In this document: positions 33,017 to 44,399 of the stretch, in pieces
Layout: every line of letters starts with the position of its first letter
How positions within the stretch are numbered: position 1 is the stretch's first letter
Virus record (IMG/VR): IMGVR_UViG_3300023174_000050
Location: 126,132-190,131 of that record
Source of the DNA: a virus
Strand: one strand, 5' to 3'
Length of the DNA: 64,000 nt
Made by a program: the position numbers and the translations under genes
The notes under the pieces: generated by a model
Databases searched by the model: none
What the model saw: only the letters and a program-made list of their open reading frames with translations
Told to the model about the DNA's origin: nothing

Positions 33017-34024
33017 ATGGAAATTGGTCAAGGTATAACAATATCTGGTGGTACTGCAATAAGTACCACCAAACCTTCGTTTGGTCAGAATATTAATTTT
33101 TTATTAGTTGCAGGTGGCGGGGGAGGTGGTGGTTTGGCCTTTGGCGGTGGCGGTGGAGGCGGGGGATTTGTATCATCCACTACTACTATAAATGTTGGCA
33201 CAAACTATAATGTAATAGTAGGTGCCGGCGGCGGTGTTGTTCAAAATTGGCCGAGTTATCCTAATTATGGGTATTGTGGTGATAACGGTGCAAATACCAC
33301 GTTTAACGAAATAACAGCTGTCGGTGGTGGCGGTGGCGGAAATTATATTAGTCCTTTTGTAGGAACTCCTACATCTGGAAACCATGGCGGAAGCGGCGGT
33401 GGCGGCACTGCAGGTTCTAACCCAAACGGGTCTGGTGAAACTGCAGGTGGAGCTGGATATGATTATCCGTCACCTACTCAACAAGGTTATCCAGGGGGAT
33501 ATGGGAGGATGGGCCCATCGGGTGGCGGCTCAGGTGGCGGCGGTGGCGCTGGCGGATCAGGTGGGGTAAATCCCGGGAGGTATAATGTTTCAGGCGGAGG
33601 CAATGGTGGCATTGGGCGACAGTGGTGGGATGGTAACTACTATGCTGGCGGTGGAGCTGGTGCTTCCAATTTTTCAGCTCCAGGACAAAATTTAGGCGGC
33701 CTCGGAGGAGGCGGCAACAGCGGGGTATTCGACAACTCCTACGGTGCAAATAATAACGGTGCCAATGCAGCAATAAACACTGGCGGTGGAGGTGGTGGCG
33801 CAGCATGGTATAATTCTTCGGGGGTTCCTCCGGGATCACCAATCAATTCAATTGCAGGACAGGGCGGTTCTGGTATAGCAATATTTTCTCACCCGACAAA
33901 AATACCTGTAGCAAATACCACAGGCTCACCTAATGTAACATATGTTTCAGGTAATATAATTTATAAATTTAATCAATCTGGCACAATACGTTGGGACTTT
34001 TCTAATTCTTTAGATTTCATATAG
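33017..34024 (+). CDS. glycine-rich domain virion/tail-associated protein
   Basis: FLLVAGGGGGG, YYAGGG, ANAAINTGGGGGG, GGSGIAI motifs. Confidence 0.7.
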   Translation: MEIGQGITISGGTAISTTKPSFGQNINFLLVAGGGGGGGLAFGGGGGGGGFVSSTTTINVGTNYNVIVGAGGGVVQNWPSYPNYGYCGDNGANTTFNEITAVGGGGGGNYISPFVGTPTSGNHGGSGGGGTAGSNPNGSGETAGGAGYDYPSPTQQGYPGGYGRMGPSGGGSGGGGGAGGSGGVNPGRYNVSGGGNGGIGRQWWDGNYYAGGGAGASNFSAPGQNLGGLGGGGNSGVFDNSYGANNNGANAAINTGGGGGGAAWYNSSGVPPGSPINSIAGQGGSGIAIFSHPTKIPVANTTGSPNVTYVSGNIIYKFNQSGTIRWDFSNSLDFI

Positions 34025-34034
34025 CAGGAATACA

Positions 34035-35765
34035 ATGATAATAACCAATGGAGTAGTAATTAGAGGCGGTGGTATATTAGACACAAATGCGCCTTCGGGT
34101 TCTGCAGATTTTATTACCCCAGGAATTTATACGTGGAAACCTCCAGTAGATGTATCATTTGTAGATGTTACAGTTATTGGTGCTGGAGGTGGAGGAATGA
34201 GTTATATTTCCTCTGCACCATATGCAGGTTCATATGCCGCAGGCGGCGGCGGCGGACTTGGATTTATGTCAAATTATCCAGTTAATCAAAACCAAGTTTA
34301 TTACATAAAGGTTGGGCAAGGTGGCTCTGCTGGTTTTTATAACATGCCTGCCGGTCCAGGTACAAGTGGCGGTACGGGCGAAGACACTGCTTTTAATACA
34401 GATAATTCATTCCCAGCAGGCAGTAGTTTAGTTTACATATATGGCGCAGGTGGAGGTCAATTTCCTCCTTTTGTTACTAACGGTGGCACAAATAACGGCG
34501 GCACTCAAGCCGGCGGCAAATTAAATTGTAATGGTTATTTATATGCTGGGGGAACGGGACAACCCGGTAGTCCATCTGACACATCTGGAAAACAGGGCGG
34601 CGGTGCAGCAACCCACACCGGAGTAGGAACTCCTGGTTCTACAAATATAAGTGAACTTGGAATTGGTTCTCCCTTATATGGTCCTAGTGTCACTCCTTCT
34701 TTTCCTACTAAGGCAACGGCTTTGTATGGTGGAGGTGGTGGCGGCTCAGGTACAAATCCAACAAGACGCACAGCCATAGATGGTAGCCCAGGCGCAGTTC
34801 GTATTTCATGGGGTTCTGAAAATTCGAGACTATATCCTCGTCCAACCGAAATTATTTTATTAGATTTCATTGTTGTTGCGGGTGGGGGTGGAGGCGGAGG
34901 TGCCAATTTTGGTGGTGGCGGTGGCGCAGGTGGATACATACAAAATTCTGCAAGACTTCAGGGGCCTGGTCCGGCAGGAGTGGGAAGTAGTTATACTGTG
35001 ATTGTGGGTGCAGGTGGCACCGAATCAGCGACAGCTGCTTCCTCCCCTGGCACAAATTCTTCTTGGTTCTCAAACGTTGCTATCGGTGGCGGCAGAGGCG
35101 GTACTGGTCTTGGCACTGTAGGTGATACTGGGGGGTCAGCTGGTGGTGCTGGAGGGTACCAATTGTCCCAACCAACACCAACTAGAGGCGTATCGCGCAC
35201 AGGTCCTAGCAATCCTACTCAAGGATTTGCTGGAGGCGGTGGAGAATTTGATCAAAATATGGGACCAGCTCCATTCTTTGGTACGATGTCCGGCGGCGGC
35301 GGCGGCGCTGGCGGCGCAGGCACATACAATATTTCTAGCCCATATCCATACGGTCCTGGCGGCAGTTCTCCCCCAAGCGGCACTGCAAGAGGAGGCGCTG
35401 GCGGTATTGGAAGACAATCTTCTATAACAGGTTTATCTGTATACTATGCCGGGGGCGGTGGTGGTTCAGGTGCAATTTCTGGATCAGCTGGTCTAGGCGG
35501 AGGTGGTGCTGGCGGAATAATATCTACTCCTGGCACAGGTACACATGGAGCTAATGCAACAGTAAACACCGGCGGTGGCGGTGGCGGTGGGGCATTTAAT
35601 ACCTCTACCGGGCCTTCGCGAGGTGGCGCTGGAGGTTCAGGTGTAGTTATTATTAGTCAATATGCTGCAAATGTTTTACCAACAGTTACAGGTTCGCCGA
35701 ATGTAATATACAATGGAGATAAAATAGTTTATAAATTTTGGCAATCTGGAACAATACAATGGTAA
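34035..35765 (+). CDS. glycine-rich domain protein with two such domains
   Basis: Repeated VIGAGGGG / VVAGGGGGG domains; C-terminus paralogous to the previous gene. Confidence 0.7.
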   Translation: MIITNGVVIRGGGILDTNAPSGSADFITPGIYTWKPPVDVSFVDVTVIGAGGGGMSYISSAPYAGSYAAGGGGGLGFMSNYPVNQNQVYYIKVGQGGSAGFYNMPAGPGTSGGTGEDTAFNTDNSFPAGSSLVYIYGAGGGQFPPFVTNGGTNNGGTQAGGKLNCNGYLYAGGTGQPGSPSDTSGKQGGGAATHTGVGTPGSTNISELGIGSPLYGPSVTPSFPTKATALYGGGGGGSGTNPTRRTAIDGSPGAVRISWGSENSRLYPRPTEIILLDFIVVAGGGGGGGANFGGGGGAGGYIQNSARLQGPGPAGVGSSYTVIVGAGGTESATAASSPGTNSSWFSNVAIGGGRGGTGLGTVGDTGGSAGGAGGYQLSQPTPTRGVSRTGPSNPTQGFAGGGGEFDQNMGPAPFFGTMSGGGGGAGGAGTYNISSPYPYGPGGSSPPSGTARGGAGGIGRQSSITGLSVYYAGGGGGSGAISGSAGLGGGGAGGIISTPGTGTHGANATVNTGGGGGGGAFNTSTGPSRGGAGGSGVVIISQYAANVLPTVTGSPNVIYNGDKIVYKFWQSGTIQW

Positions 35766-36452: not shown

Positions 36453-36480
36453 TTGACAAATATTGTAATGATGTTATAAT
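36453..36480 (+). promoter_or_regulatory. sigma70-type promoter
   Basis: TTGACA-16nt-TATAAT with extended -10 TG. Confidence 0.8.
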
Positions 36481-36495
36481 AGAAACAAGTAAAAA

Positions 36496-36684
36496 GATCC
36501 CGTTACTATTTTCGTTAAAATAGCGTTTGATTAGCGATAGAGATCCGGTGGCAGAAAACCGTTAGCGAGGTTCCCTCAGACTCTGATAGGCAGAATCCTA
36601 ACTGCACACAGACGTTAGAATAAACAGGATGGACAGAGTAACTGCTCAATTAAGGGCTGGCCTGGAAACCAGTAGCTTATCCTA
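36496..36684 (+). ncRNA. putative structured ncRNA of unknown class
   Basis: Own promoter, no ORF, several nested stems (see findings). Confidence 0.5.
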
Positions 36685-36688
36685 ATAT

Positions 36689-37584: not shown

Positions 37585-37613
37585 TTGACAAAATTTTAAA
37601 AAGATGTTATAAT
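37585..37613 (+). promoter_or_regulatory. sigma70-type promoter
   Basis: TTGACA-17nt-TATAAT with extended -10 TG. Confidence 0.85.
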
Positions 37614-37632
37614 AGTGTTTTAGGAGATAAAA

Positions 37633-37773
37633 ATGAAGCACAAGATAATCGTCAGGCAACGTAACCCCTTCGTTGTTTTGGCATTAAAAAGAAAAGCGGG
37701 TAGCCATCGTAAGCCTAACAAAGCATTACGAAGAGCAATGAATGCGGGTATAGCTCAGTCGGTAGAGCAGTAG
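37633..37773 (+). CDS. small basic protein (46 aa) reading into tRNA-Lys
   Basis: Own promoter, AGGAG RBS; MKHKIIVRQRNPFVVLALKRKAGSHRKPNKALRRAMNAGIAQSVEQ. Confidence 0.65.
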   Translation: MKHKIIVRQRNPFVVLALKRKAGSHRKPNKALRRAMNAGIAQSVEQ

Positions 37774-37819
37774 ACTTTTAATCTATTGGTCGTGGGTTCG
37801 AATCCCCCTGCCCGTACCA
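37744..37819 (+). tRNA. tRNA-Lys(TTT)
   Basis: Cloverleaf, loop CTTTTAA, CCA. Confidence 0.95.
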
Positions 37820-37906
37820 TATAAAAACATATTTGACTAAACTCGGGTTCATCCGTGATAGCAAATGCTACTATATCAAGTGTGTTTCTATATGGTAATA
37901 TATAAT

Positions 37907-38160: not shown

Positions 38161-38931
38161 ATGAAAAAATTTTTATTTGTATTACTTTTTTGTTTATGTT
38201 ATAAAGCATTTGCCGATACTAGCGTAATGGTATATGATATTACAGAAGACAACCATCAATACAATAGTAACATTAATAAGACCAGACCAATAGCAAGCAT
38301 AACTAAGTTAATGACTGTTATGGTAAGTTTAAACAATGATCAAAATTTACTTAAAGAAGTTAGATTGGTTAACAAAATTAAAAGTAGTTTGCCAATGCAA
38401 TCATACAAAAGATATGATTTAATTAAAGCAGTATTAGTTAAAAGTGATAATGGTGCAGCAGAAACTATAGCAGAGGATTATCCAGGTGGAAGGAAAGCAT
38501 TTATTAAAGCAATGAATGATACTGCCAAAAAAATTGGTATGATGAGTACGCATTTTGATGATCCAACAGGACTTAGTTCTAAGAATACTTCCACTGCAAG
38601 TGAGGTTGCTATCATGGCAAGTTATGCTGCAAATTATTTAATCATTAGAGAAATTAGTATACAAAAACAAATAGCAATTGAAGCAAAGTTTAAAAAGAAG
38701 ATACGAACAATAATTTTAAATAATACTAACAAACCTATACTATTTGAATTTGATACTATAATAGTTAGTAAAACAGGCTTTACCAATCCTGCAGGTTGGT
38801 GTAATGTTTTGATTGTAGAAAAGAATAAAAAAAGATATGCGATTGTTGTATTAGGTGCGCCTAATAAACAGGCAAGAATAAAAACAGTTGAGAATATGAT
38901 GTACAATCATATCAACGATAACGAAATTTAG
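38161..38931 (+). CDS. peptidase S11 D-Ala-D-Ala peptidase (PBP7/PbpG-like)
   Basis: Signal peptide; SITK (SxxK), SDN (SxN) and KTG motifs; GAGGA RBS. Confidence 0.9.
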   Translation: MKKFLFVLLFCLCYKAFADTSVMVYDITEDNHQYNSNINKTRPIASITKLMTVMVSLNNDQNLLKEVRLVNKIKSSLPMQSYKRYDLIKAVLVKSDNGAAETIAEDYPGGRKAFIKAMNDTAKKIGMMSTHFDDPTGLSSKNTSTASEVAIMASYAANYLIIREISIQKQIAIEAKFKKKIRTIILNNTNKPILFEFDTIIVSKTGFTNPAGWCNVLIVEKNKKRYAIVVLGAPNKQARIKTVENMMYNHINDNEI

Positions 38932-39022
38932 GAAGATGATGCAGCGGGGTTGGTCCTGCGACTGGCCTTGAAAACCAGGTTCTCTTAACAGGGATGGGGT
39001 TCGACTCCTCCGTCTTCCGCCA
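38931..39022 (+). tRNA. tRNA-Ser(TGA)
   Basis: GGAAGAT/GTCTTCC acceptor, loop CTTGAAA, long variable arm, G73, CCA. Confidence 0.88.
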
Positions 39023-39126: not shown

Positions 39127-39218
39127 GCCAGCGAGACTGGGTAGTCAGAGAGGTCTTATACACCTTTTAGCGCCAGATTAGCGTTCTTGAGAGAGTTCGA
39201 GTCTCTCCGCTGGTACCA
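39127..39218 (+). tRNA. atypical tRNA, anticodon TAT (Ile UAU)
   Basis: GCCAGCG/CGCTGGT acceptor, mini D-arm, GAGGT-CTTATAC-ACCTT, long variable arm, canonical T-arm, CCA. Confidence 0.65.
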
Positions 39219-39302: not shown

Positions 39303-39376
39303 TGCGGAATAGAGAAATGGTATCTCGTGAGTCTCATAAGCTCAAGTTCTTGGTTCGACTCCAGGTTCCGCTACCA
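39303..39376 (+). tRNA. tRNA-CAT, initiator-like (fMet)
   Basis: 1:72 T-T mismatch, A11-U24, loop CTCATAA; lacks three G-C pairs in the anticodon stem. Confidence 0.85.
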
Positions 39377-39959
39377 ATTGTTTTAATTCGTGAGAAATAG
39401 CAATACGTTCTATTAGACCATAACTATAGTCTTTAAGTATTTCTATTTCAAGATCACACACTAGAATACGACGAGTAAAATCTGCGTGTTCTCGATCACG
39501 TTGTTCCAATTGTTTTTGTACGAATTCAAGTAATAAATTTTTCTTATTGTTATTTACATTTAATCTCGCAATAACTTTATTTAGATTGTCCTTAAACTTA
39601 TTGCAAATAGAAATATTATTTGTTGTTTCTGCTTTTATATTTAATACTTGATTTCGCATTTCCTGTATTAGATCACCTGCCTCGGCATCGAAGTTGGGTA
39701 TAACAGAGTTTAGCATTTGATTAATATGATCTATAGCATTGTTTCTAATTTGCAGATTTGATTCTGCATCGCCAGATATGTCGTAAGATTTTCTTCGAAT
39801 AGGATCAGATAAAATTTCATACGCTTCTTTTATGCGTTTAAATTTTTCCTCATCCCCGCCCTTATCAGGATGATGTATGTTTGCCAAGTGTCTGTATTTG
39901 AGTTTTATTTCTTCCTCATCTGCATCAATTGGCAATTCTAGTTCTAGATATGGGTCCAT
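39342..39959 (-). CDS. J-domain (DnaJ-like) protein
   Basis: EIKLKYRHLANIHHPDKGG...AYEILSD; only minus-strand gene in the tRNA array. Confidence 0.88.
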   Translation of the reverse strand: MDPYLELELPIDADEEEIKLKYRHLANIHHPDKGGDEEKFKRIKEAYEILSDPIRRKSYDISGDAESNLQIRNNAIDHINQMLNSVIPNFDAEAGDLIQEMRNQVLNIKAETTNNISICNKFKDNLNKVIARLNVNNNKKNLLLEFVQKQLEQRDREHADFTRRILVCDLEIEILKDYSYGLIERIAISHELKQLVAEPGVEPRT

Positions 39960-40002: not shown

Positions 40003-40185
40003 ATGAGTGGAAAAGGTTCGGCTCCAAGGCCATTTAGTGTCAGCAACGAAGAATACGAAAAAAGATGGGATGCAATTTTTCAAAGAGATATCAGAGAAGT
40101 TGAGGATGATTTGAATGAAAAAGAAGAATTTGAAAGAATTCTAAAACATAATGAGAGTAAAGAAAAAAATTCCGGTGTAGTATAA
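40003..40185 (+). CDS. small protein (60 aa) reading into tRNA-Trp
   Basis: AGGAG RBS; MSGKGSAPRPFSVSNEEYEKRWDAIF... Confidence 0.65.
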   Translation: MSGKGSAPRPFSVSNEEYEKRWDAIFQRDIREVEDDLNEKEEFERILKHNESKEKNSGVV

Positions 40186-40255: not shown

Positions 40256-40329
40256 GCGGGATTGGTTTAATGGTAAAACGAAACCTTGCCAAGGTTTAGT
40301 CACCAGTTCGATTCTGGTATCCCGCTCCA
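40256..40329 (+). tRNA. tRNA-Gly(GCC)
   Basis: Cloverleaf, loop TTGCCAA, U73, CCA. Confidence 0.95.
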
Positions 40330-40342
40330 ACAAAGGTGCACT

Positions 40343-40825
40343 ATGAAAAAATTAGACATGAATGAAGTTACTGCTTTTATCGAAGCGCAAAGTCCAGAGA
40401 CCAAAATATACATTGGAGCGGATTCCGAACGATATAGAAGAAACGATAAATGGTACGCCGACTATACTCTTGCTATTGTAGTCCACATCGATGGACGCCA
40501 TGGTTGTAAAATCTTTGGTGAAGTTCAAACCGAAATTGATTATGATGCAAAAAATAGCAGACCTTCCATGCGTCTAATGAATGAAGTATATAAAGTTGCA
40601 GAACTATATCACAAACTTATAGATGCAGATGTAATTGGTGAAAAAGAAGTTCAAATTCATCTTGACATTAATCCCAAAGAATGTTATAATAGCTCTATAG
40701 TGATTCAACAAGCAGTTGGTTATATTAAAGGGACCTGTAATGTGGTACCGATGGTTAAGCCAAATGCTTTTGCAGCTAGTTATGCTGCCGATAGACTGAA
40801 AGAGGTCATGGCAATGGCGGCATAA
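40343..40825 (+). CDS. YkuK/DUF458 RNase H-like protein
   Basis: IYIGADS, RLMNEV, IHLDIN, KPNAFAASYAAD. Confidence 0.8.
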   Translation: MKKLDMNEVTAFIEAQSPETKIYIGADSERYRRNDKWYADYTLAIVVHIDGRHGCKIFGEVQTEIDYDAKNSRPSMRLMNEVYKVAELYHKLIDADVIGEKEVQIHLDINPKECYNSSIVIQQAVGYIKGTCNVVPMVKPNAFAASYAADRLKEVMAMAA

Positions 40826-40835
40826 ATAATTTTAT

Positions 40836-41147
40836 TGTTGTATGAAGCGAAGAGAAATGTGTTCTGGACGGGGGTGCAAATCCCCCCAGGTCCACCATAA
40901 ACATACTAGCCTTTGGGTGTAGTCCGTAAGGATCAAGAGATAATTTCAAAGACCCCATATAACCAAGTTAGTATGTTTTTGATGGGCCTGCATAGTTTCG
41001 ACAGGGCAAATAGTAACGGAGTGGACAGCACATCAGAGTAGATGTTAAAACTAAAACAACGTAAACGCAAACGACGAAATGTTCGCATTAGCAGCCTAAA
41101 CACTGCTTAGGGTTTCGGTAGGTTTCCTCGTAACAGAATAACCTACC
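40836..41147 (+). ncRNA. ssrA: circularly permuted two-piece tmRNA (5' boundary approximate)
   Basis: T-arm and CAGGTCC-A-CCA (to 40897) precede GGGCCTG...TTCGAC (from 40984); G3-U70; tag ORF ANDEMFALAA* at 41067-41099. Confidence 0.92.
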
Positions 41148-41152
41148 TTTTT
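41117..41152 (+). terminator. hairpin + U tract at the end of the tmRNA
   Basis: GGTAGGTT...AACCTACC-TTTTT. Confidence 0.6.
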
Positions 41153-41171
41153 AAATTTAAAAAGGAGTTTT

Positions 41172-41735
41172 ATGAAAAAAACAGTATTAGCACTTGCGCT
41201 TTTGGCAAGTTTAACAGTCTTTGCTAGCGATAATGTAGCAGTAGACTATTCAGTTAAGAAAAAAGTTGATTCAACACAACACAATGATGTATATGGATTA
41301 ACCGTTGGTCATAAATTAGACAACGGCATTACTTCAGAAATTCGTTTTGAAAATGAAACAACTAACACTGGCAAACAAGAAGGTTTAATGCAAGTTAAAG
41401 GCATTTATGATTTGACCGGTGTGGCAGGTGTTACACCATATGTTGCAGCAGCAGTTGGTCATAAAATGAAAGCAACTGAGAATTTTGAATTCTATGTTGC
41501 GGAGGTTGGCGCAAAAACAAATTTAGGTCCTGTAGGATTAAAATTTGCATCTCGTATTCGCTCACCCTTTGATGAAGGACATATTGGTGCAGGTAGTAAA
41601 TATCGTACATATGAAAATAGTTTGACTGCAGGTTATAAGTTAAACAAACTTGATACTATCAGTGTCAAATATGCAAATGAAAAAGGTGATAGTAACTATC
41701 ATACAACAGGCGTATCCTTTAGTCACGCATTTTAA
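41172..41735 (+). CDS. outer-membrane beta-barrel protein
   Basis: Sec signal peptide, alternating beta-strand pattern, C-terminal Phe (GVSFSHAF). Confidence 0.7.
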   Translation: MKKTVLALALLASLTVFASDNVAVDYSVKKKVDSTQHNDVYGLTVGHKLDNGITSEIRFENETTNTGKQEGLMQVKGIYDLTGVAGVTPYVAAAVGHKMKATENFEFYVAEVGAKTNLGPVGLKFASRIRSPFDEGHIGAGSKYRTYENSLTAGYKLNKLDTISVKYANEKGDSNYHTTGVSFSHAF

Positions 41736-41934: not shown

Positions 41935-41963
41935 TTGACAGGGTTTCTTTTTGGTGTTATAAT
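41935..41963 (+). promoter_or_regulatory. sigma70-type promoter
   Basis: TTGACA-17nt-TATAAT with extended -10 TG. Confidence 0.85.
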
Positions 41964-43883: not shown

Positions 43884-44399
43884 ATGCCTAACCAATGGAC
43901 TAAAGCTAAAGAAACAGGAATACCCTACATTATTAAGGATTCTACTAGAAAAAAACTTAGCAATGCTGCAACAGAAAAAAATCTAAAATATTTTTCATCT
44001 AAAGAAAATAGAGATAAGCATTCTGATGCTATGAAATTAGCAGTAGAAAAATTTCCAAATTCGTATACATCTTCTAACAGAGGAAGAACCAAGCAAATAG
44101 TATATGATGGTATAAAATTTCAAGGTAGGTGGGAATTAGATTTTTATAAATGGTGCATTTCTGAGAATATACAAATTAAAAGATGTGAAGAATTTTTTGA
44201 ATATAAATGGAATGGTATAAGAAAATATTTTCCAGATTTCTTTTTGCCTGAGCAAAATTTGTATGTAGAAATAAAAGGGTATGAAACTGAAAGAGATCAA
44301 GCTAAATGGTCTCAGTTTCCAAAAAAATTATTTGTGGTTAAACGAAAAGAAATATTACAAATAAAAAAAGGTAATTTTAATAAAGCGACTCTAGCATAG
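43884..44399 (+). mobile_element. PD-(D/E)xK endonuclease, homing-endonuclease-like
   Basis: YFPDFFLPEQNLYVEIKG catalytic motif; basic NUMOD-like N-terminus; sits between a tRNA half and an intact tRNA. Confidence 0.65.

Follow-up and report, generated by a model that had tools for sequence, protein, structure and literature searches.

The window analysed here, a 64-kb stretch of DNA, is the final part of a 190,131-bp IMG/VR virus record rated complete, and the segment of the window from 36.1 to 44.5 kb contains 26 tRNA genes together with a two-piece tmRNA. Our interest lay in a small open reading frame of this array, which the ORF listing places at 37633-37773 (46 amino acids, ATG at 37633, TAG at 37771-37773). 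A sequence-only reading of the region had described a promoter, a ribosome-binding site and a 46-codon frame whose last nine codons and stop lie inside a tRNA-Lys gene, and all of these are present. The promoter (37585..37613, plus strand) is of the sigma-70 type, with TTGACA and TATAAT separated by 17 nt, a TG extension and a 12/12 match. Perfect promoters of the form TTGACA-N16/17-TATAAT occur seven times in 35.5-45 kb, six times with the TG extension, and the distance from the -10 element to the ATG is that of a bona fide metallophosphoesterase gene (promoter 41935-41963, ATG 41984). The Shine-Dalgarno sequence AGGAG (37622..37626, plus strand) lies 6 nt 5' of the ATG and is kept in related loci, as is the promoter block in the relatives L001, L011, L015 and L019-21. 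The tRNA-Lys gene (anticodon UUU, encoded CCA; 37744..37819, plus strand), recognized by ARAGORN and Rfam with 71 bits, begins 111 nt from the ATG, exactly after codon 37 as the reading had it, and the TAG is found 27 nt inside the tRNA. The 5' end of the tRNA is the predicted RNase P site at which the mRNA of the small ORF would end. The product expected from such a cleaved, non-stop mRNA is the 37-codon part (37633..37743, plus strand), a small basic protein with seven Lys codons, which is supported by homologues and purifying selection; the read-through codons 38-46 and the TAG (37744..37773, plus strand) lie inside the tRNA and are unconserved as protein.

The same array contains the permuted, two-piece tmRNA (40805..41190, plus strand), which encodes the tag ANDEMFALAA and has its own perfect promoter (40662-40690). 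This promoter sits inside the 3' end of an RNaseH-like ORF (40286-40825), which overlaps the tmRNA start at 40805. A permuted tmRNA is present in the phage of the window and in four of five large related phage records, and the sole large relative which lacks it (G407, locus L028) has a small ORF with its own stop. We found no genes for SmpB, an RF-1 domain protein or RtcB in the five large phage records carrying the small ORF. Two-piece tmRNAs are known in aquatic myophages, with no companion protein described (PMC9004378).

Several other features of the region deserve mention. Ahead of the tRNA array, at 33017-35765, stand two neighbouring genes that encode the glycine-rich domain PF21722; the array itself includes an S11 peptidase gene as well as one with a DnaJ domain (39342-39959, minus strand). 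Between a perfect promoter at 36453-36480 and tRNA-Asp lie about 200 nt in which no credible ORF is seen. Conservation of this segment (36453-36688) in L001 is about 90%, and both sides of one stem have changed (GAGG..CCTC versus GAGAAG..CTTCTC); the segment gave no Rfam match and an MFE z-score of 0.1, and it may be an unknown small RNA. A tRNA-like element at 38931-39018, which begins at the stop codon of a D-Ala-D-Ala carboxypeptidase gene (38161-38931), matched the Rfam tRNA-Sec model with 36.6 bits, below the gathering score, and was not called by ARAGORN.

The small-protein family and its junction with tRNA-Lys

A word-indexed search found 30 homologues of the small ORF, and an exhaustive phmmer search of 1.8 billion representatives gave a family of 66 clusters at 50% identity. 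The core common to all of them reads RNPFV..LA..RKAGSH.K..KA.R, and the residues N11, A22, G23, H25 and R33 are invariant. Across the 24 ungapped core codons of 14 loci it is every third position that varies, with pairwise pS saturated at 0.6-1.0 and pN at 0.02-0.25. Since synonymous sites are saturated while the protein is kept, the ORF is under purifying selection, and it is almost certainly a real protein gene. Pfam, NCBIfam and PHROGs contain no family for the phage or bacterial members even at permissive E-values, tblastn against GenBank phages and PLSDB plasmids gave no match to the protein, and blastn of the region returned tRNA similarity alone. Those database members which have names are annotated as 'hypothetical protein'. 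A faint lead to DUF7230, obtained for a bacterial homologue in the ESM Atlas among otherwise unnamed clusters, was unsupported by hmmscan and was discarded. We regard the family as previously unannotated and as a new candidate for one with the logic of the ribosome-rescue factors ArfA and BrfA. An AF2 model of the 37-residue protein (pLDDT 72) predicts helices at residues 12-21 and 30-36 with a loop over AGSHRKPN between them; it appears neutral with regard to a likeness to ArfA, speaking neither for nor against it.

The junction between ORF and tRNA was compared in the DNA of 30 phage or MAG loci. In all 26 loci which keep an intact ORF and a downstream tRNA-Lys, tRNA-Lys(UUU) starts 48-60 nt past the AG of AGSH, and the first in-frame stop comes 7 to >93 nt after the tRNA has begun and in several loci lies beyond the entire tRNA. 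These stop-less junctions fall into 11 types, among which the tRNA-Lys sequences are strongly unlike each other, all three reading-frame offsets are found and the upstream neighbours vary (tRNA-Gln, Phe, Arg, Met, Ile, Ala, Asp, or a promoter). In the two close phages L020 and L021 nearly the same ORF is followed by different tRNA-Lys genes. The tRNA is tRNA-Lys(UUU) in every homologous locus that abuts a tRNA. The sequence-only reading had proposed to look for homologues that also abut tRNAs, and they do so, at tRNA-Lys(UUU) and with no prior stop, in the 11 junction types; the architecture it suggested, that of a small basic protein whose stop codon would be lost by 5' processing of a tRNA, has strong comparative support, from these junctions, from the terminators which bacterial homologues have inside the ORF and from the tmRNA of related phages. 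The coincidence of the tRNA 5' end with a codon boundary, on the other hand, was rejected as a general rule, since related loci use frames 0, 1 and 2.

The same arrangement is visible in the protein databases. HMMER matches to the family end at query residue 35-46 (mostly 36-42), and total protein lengths range from 39 to 153 aa. The C-terminal tails of the homologues differ and consist of translated tRNA sequence, and it is because of the abutting tRNA that the protein end is unconserved. Such tails were recognized in at least 40 of 94 database proteins, and for 33 of the 40 tRNA-Lys is the best match; the count is a lower bound, since a tail of only 3-6 residues is too short to score. As a control we considered the ORF 40003-40185, which ends 12 nt inside tRNA-Trp (40171). 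In L001 the homologous ORF ends just short of the tRNA, which argues that chance overlaps in packed arrays are not conserved, unlike the junction of the small ORF with tRNA-Lys. A further ORF of the window, 43884-44399, also ends 12 nt inside a tRNA, in this case tRNA-Met (44385). Completion of a stop codon by A-addition to a T or TA before the tRNA was considered as well and rejected, as only one of the 11 junction types has a fitting T (L031).

Variant loci and bacterial relatives

A number of loci depart from this pattern. L062 has a TGA 18 nt ahead of tRNA-Lys, and L060, L063/L064, L030 and P0091 have ordinary stops with no adjoining tRNA, P0091 being flanked by a TilS-like gene on one side and by a peptide deformylase gene on the other. 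Homologues with ordinary stops away from tRNAs, which would speak against the sequence-only reading, are a minority of divergent members only. In L025 (3001-3140) a deletion fuses codon 29 to the 3' half of tRNA-Lys and destroys both; the ORF is a pseudogene, an instance of the unit being lost in nature. L028 and the related L059 carry a TAA in the apical loop of a hairpin of ~17 bp directly before an unusually long tRNA. The stems of the two hairpins have completely different sequences, and the hairpin might stabilise the 3' end or be cut by a nuclease. Long genes of 92-101 nt that resemble tRNA-Ile(UAU) and contain an extra insert occur at 39127-39218 of the window, at 3139-3239 of L028 and at 1675-1771 of L059. 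A hairpin over the RNPFV codons, seen in MFE folds, was regarded as incidental, its pairs being forced by the amino acids and its outer pairs lost.

Distant relatives of the small protein are also encoded on bacterial chromosomes. The phage-only profile gave matches in nine of 401 Pseudomonadota genomes, and a combined profile detected relatives in 43 of 301 genomes of a single order. The members of this order that have names are Chitinimonas, in which the homologues are annotated as 'hypothetical'. Canonical ArfA is rare in the same 301 genomes, with three occurrences, none of which overlaps the 43 with the new family. None of the bacterial homologues has an adjoining tRNA. In about ten of 28 bacterial loci (L075-L080, L082, L086, L087, L092) the reading frame itself contains a canonical intrinsic terminator, whose GC-rich stem of 7-12 bp pairs perfectly or nearly so and is followed by a T-run, the loop being short. 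In the protein it reads as G-R-D-D-F-P-P-F-F, a motif which is the terminator hairpin translated; L075 has another stem sequence in the same place. Past the terminator the frame runs through unconserved sequence to a stop 12-98 nt on. The remaining bacterial copies, about 60% of the loci, have ordinary stops and, as some phage or MAG members have them too, non-stop expression does not seem to be obligatory for the protein.

The bacterial loci (L066-L092) can be divided by context into those directly after rtcB, those directly after hslU and those elsewhere. In 10 of the 28 loci rtcB precedes the small ORF on the same strand at a distance of up to 1.3 kb, and in six of these it is within 50 nt. 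The hslU gene lies 18-67 nt upstream in five of 28, and the hslU-linked homologues carry an N-terminal MANK... extension. A frame which in some loci separates rtcB from the small ORF had no Pfam match and may be spurious. In the phage-like locus L005, rtcB is located 1.2 kb downstream of the small ORF. The gene context points to translation and RNA damage.

The missing stop codon and its possible meaning

The family conserves its non-stop architecture and has arrived at it in at least two ways, in the phages through tRNA processing and in bacteria through an in-ORF terminator. Non-stop regulation calls for a processing or termination site ahead of the in-frame stop, and at the level of gene architecture the window, the 11 junction types and about ten of the 28 bacterial loci have one. 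As the missing stop has been conserved through saturated divergence and is brought about by two unrelated devices, it is hard to explain unless it is selected; the design looks selected, and it is probably functional. To our knowledge, the sole use of such a design is to couple the level of a protein to trans-translation capacity. Taken together with its selection, this favours the logic of the sequence-only reading, a scheme in which ribosomes stall, tmRNA tags the product and free protein appears upon saturation. In the phage of the window the small ORF and tRNA-Lys(UUU) would be transcribed together from their own early-type promoter, and an RNase P cut at 37743/37744 would leave a message with no stop codon, at the 3' end of which ribosomes would stall. 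While trans-translation has spare capacity, provided by the host tmRNA-SmpB and the phage tmRNA, the product would be tagged and degraded. Once the rescue capacity is exhausted, for example by nuclease attack on tRNAs or mRNAs in infection, untagged protein would build up. The likeliest activity of the free protein would be of the ArfA/BrfA/ArfT type, its basic tail probing the empty mRNA channel and recruiting a release factor. The ends of the RNA in vivo, the tagging and the rescue activity are what we infer. RNase P cleavage of an abutting tRNA is a candidate for a previously undescribed way of producing a non-stop message.

How probable is this explanation as a whole, a non-stop small gene with a rescue product of the ArfA/BrfA/ArfT type? 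We consider it a good possibility, though we would stop just short of calling it probable, and that the protein itself is a rescue factor we propose tentatively. Several observations sit uneasily with it. The protein has no sequence-detectable homology to ArfA or BrfA, some members of the family manage with ordinary stops, and genes for SmpB or a release-factor domain are absent from the five phage records. Four freshwater metatranscriptome runs contain small parts of the stretch as contigs, and in assemblies of several studies contigs 97-99% identical to 37619-37833 cross the junction and could be unprocessed precursor or DNA; as the contigs show neither ends nor strand, nor whether they stem from RNA or from contaminating DNA, they decide nothing. 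Moreover, an invariable tRNA-Lys is unneeded by pure ArfA logic and hints at a role specific to Lys or to tRNA damage. It is well known that tRNA-Lys(UUU) is the classic target of anticodon nucleases. Could the protein, rather than being a rescue factor, help in counter-defence and in the repair of damage to tRNA or RNA, working with tRNA-Lys(UUU) or RtcB, while the non-stop design merely tunes its level? For instance, it might shield tRNA-Lys or escort it, block an anticodon nuclease, or aid RtcB. Such a role would accord with a partner that is always tRNA-Lys(UUU) in otherwise rearranged tRNA arrays, with the tRNA-Lys linkage that L062 keeps despite its own stop, and with rtcB, which is directly upstream of bacterial homologues and near the gene in L005. 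However, it leaves the two independent stop-removing devices unexplained, there are hslU-linked and stand-alone bacterial copies with neither tRNA nor RtcB nearby, and RtcB is missing from the five records of phages which have the gene. We find this explanation unlikely on its own. Still, a partner that is always tRNA-Lys(UUU), together with the linkage to rtcB, points to some connection with tRNA damage, and such a connection is either the main rival of the rescue explanation or its complement.

It may also be asked whether the overlap is incidental, an ordinary small basic protein being made mainly from the unprocessed precursor, with translation ending at any stop in or behind the tRNA, and the stop being missing just because tRNA arrays are tightly packed. 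Other ORFs of the window end a few nt inside tRNAs, the RNA-library contigs bridge the junction and several homologues function with ordinary stops, all of which would be expected in this case. Yet the control overlap is not kept in the relative, whereas the stop-less junction is kept through 11 types and saturated divergence. Unconserved tails of 2 to >80 residues, often running through a whole folded tRNA, are hardly to be expected for a 37-residue protein, and packing cannot account for the bacterial in-ORF terminators, so that we think mere packing quite improbable. Another explanation would make the Lys-rich ORF a cis-acting leader which senses charged tRNA-Lys and controls the maturation of the tRNA-Lys abutting it: fast translation would unfold the tRNA, and stalling at Lys codons would let it fold and be cut by RNase P. 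The many Lys codons, the tRNA-Lys which is always the downstream gene and the fact that ribosomes must enter the tRNA, with no stop ahead of it, agree with such a leader. What makes it very unlikely in our view is that the whole peptide is conserved, with its five invariant residues and low dN/dS, and not just the Lys codons, that bacterial homologues have no downstream tRNA, and that no alternative pairing between ORF and tRNA is conserved, cross pairs numbering 0-3 in eight of the 11 junction types (MFE folds). The leader and incidental-overlap models fit the data less well than the logic of non-stop rescue.

We know of no back-up for trans-translation in most bacteria outside the lineages with ArfA, ArfB, ArfT and BrfA, and the authors of the BrfA work reportedly predicted further, unidentified rescue factors. 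An unannotated family which has arrived at the non-stop design by two independent routes is a concrete and easily testable candidate. If the rescue explanation is true, the phage protein would be the first phage-encoded factor of the ArfA/BrfA kind, and tRNA processing would be usable for making a regulatory non-stop mRNA. It would also help to explain why tmRNA genes stand beside tRNA arrays in large aquatic phages. In infection the output of the factor would depend on the tmRNA capacity of both host and phage, and perhaps also on whether tRNA-Lys is attacked by anticodon nucleases. Perhaps ribosome rescue is connected with defence against RNA damage, as the links to rtcB and tRNA-Lys suggest.

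Comparison with known systems

The sequence-only reading had drawn attention to the segment KRKAGSHRK, which weakly resembles a segment of ArfA, and had proposed a profile comparison. No homology emerged: hmmscan with Pfam, including ArfA (PF03889), and with NCBIfam found no match to the small protein at E<=10, and hhalign of the family profile with an ArfA alignment made for this comparison gave a probability of 0.2%. The family profile also found nothing at E<=10 among all PDB chain sequences, a search which would include BrfA, whose structure is solved. The likeness holds at the level of the motif and does not extend to sequence homology. In the ArfA alignment K-G-K-G-S-Y is invariant, whereas in the small-protein family it is A-G-x-H within (K/R)KAGSH(R)K, so that the two motifs appear similar in character but not the same. 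Like the phage protein, ArfA is small (about 55 aa when mature) and basic, its ORF loses its stop before translation and its level is set by trans-translation. Both have a Lys/Arg-rich segment with a G-S-(aromatic/His) centre (KGKGSY and KRKAGSH) after a hydrophobic P-(L)-F patch, but the spacing from the PF patch to GS is 2-3 residues shorter in the small-protein family. The stop of arfA is removed by RNase III or a terminator hairpin, while that of the phage ORF would be removed by tRNA 5' processing. ArfA (PF03889) belongs to beta- and gamma-proteobacteria, and the small gene of the phages is phage-borne and always linked to tRNA-Lys. Judged from its sequence, the small protein is ArfA-like in logic and not an ArfA.

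An in-ORF terminator has been shown experimentally to yield a non-stop mRNA for brfA and, with RNase III, for arfA, and the products accumulate only when trans-translation fails (PMC6881298). The rho-independent terminator inside the ORF of BrfA (YqkK of Bacillus subtilis; PMC6881298) has its counterpart in about ten of the 28 bacterial homologues described here. BrfA is an evolutionarily independent rescue factor with no sequence similarity to the small-protein family, and its taxonomic range differs from that of the latter, which is found in aquatic phages and in bacteria of the Burkholderiales type. In Francisella tularensis, ArfT is a basic protein of about 40 aa with a KKGGSTNKK-type segment near its C terminus (PMC6299226). 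It is undetectable by homology searches with ArfA, has an ordinary stop and is reportedly not regulated like ArfA, although a hydrophobic P-F patch and a G-S-centred Lys/Arg-rich tail are said to be common to both (PMC6299226). By its description ArfT is like the small protein in being short and basic, and some bacterial homologues likewise have ordinary stops.

Two further arrangements are comparable. In the tRNA punctuation of mitochondria, tRNAs on either side mark off the mRNA, which RNase P and 3' processing set free, and in L005, L026 and L027 the small ORF is similarly a mere spacer between two tRNAs. In mitochondria, however, a terminal U or UA is completed to UAA by polyadenylation, whereas the phage message would stay stop-less. 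In the PrfH-RtcB2 system a release factor is encoded together with an RtcB RNA ligase. PrfH is a paralogue of RF2 with a GGQ domain, whereas the small protein is a peptide of 40-60 aa which contains no catalytic motif; its bacterial homologues are likewise linked to an RtcB gene, standing directly 3' of rtcB in six loci and within 1.3 kb of it in ten of 28. With all these comparisons in mind, we tentatively suggest that the phage gene could represent the phage branch of a fourth family of release factor-dependent rescue factors, after ArfA, ArfT and BrfA, with its message made by RNase P at tRNA-Lys. Such a family might, with the same reservation, extend over Burkholderiales-type bacteria, in rtcB and hslU operons, and large aquatic phages.
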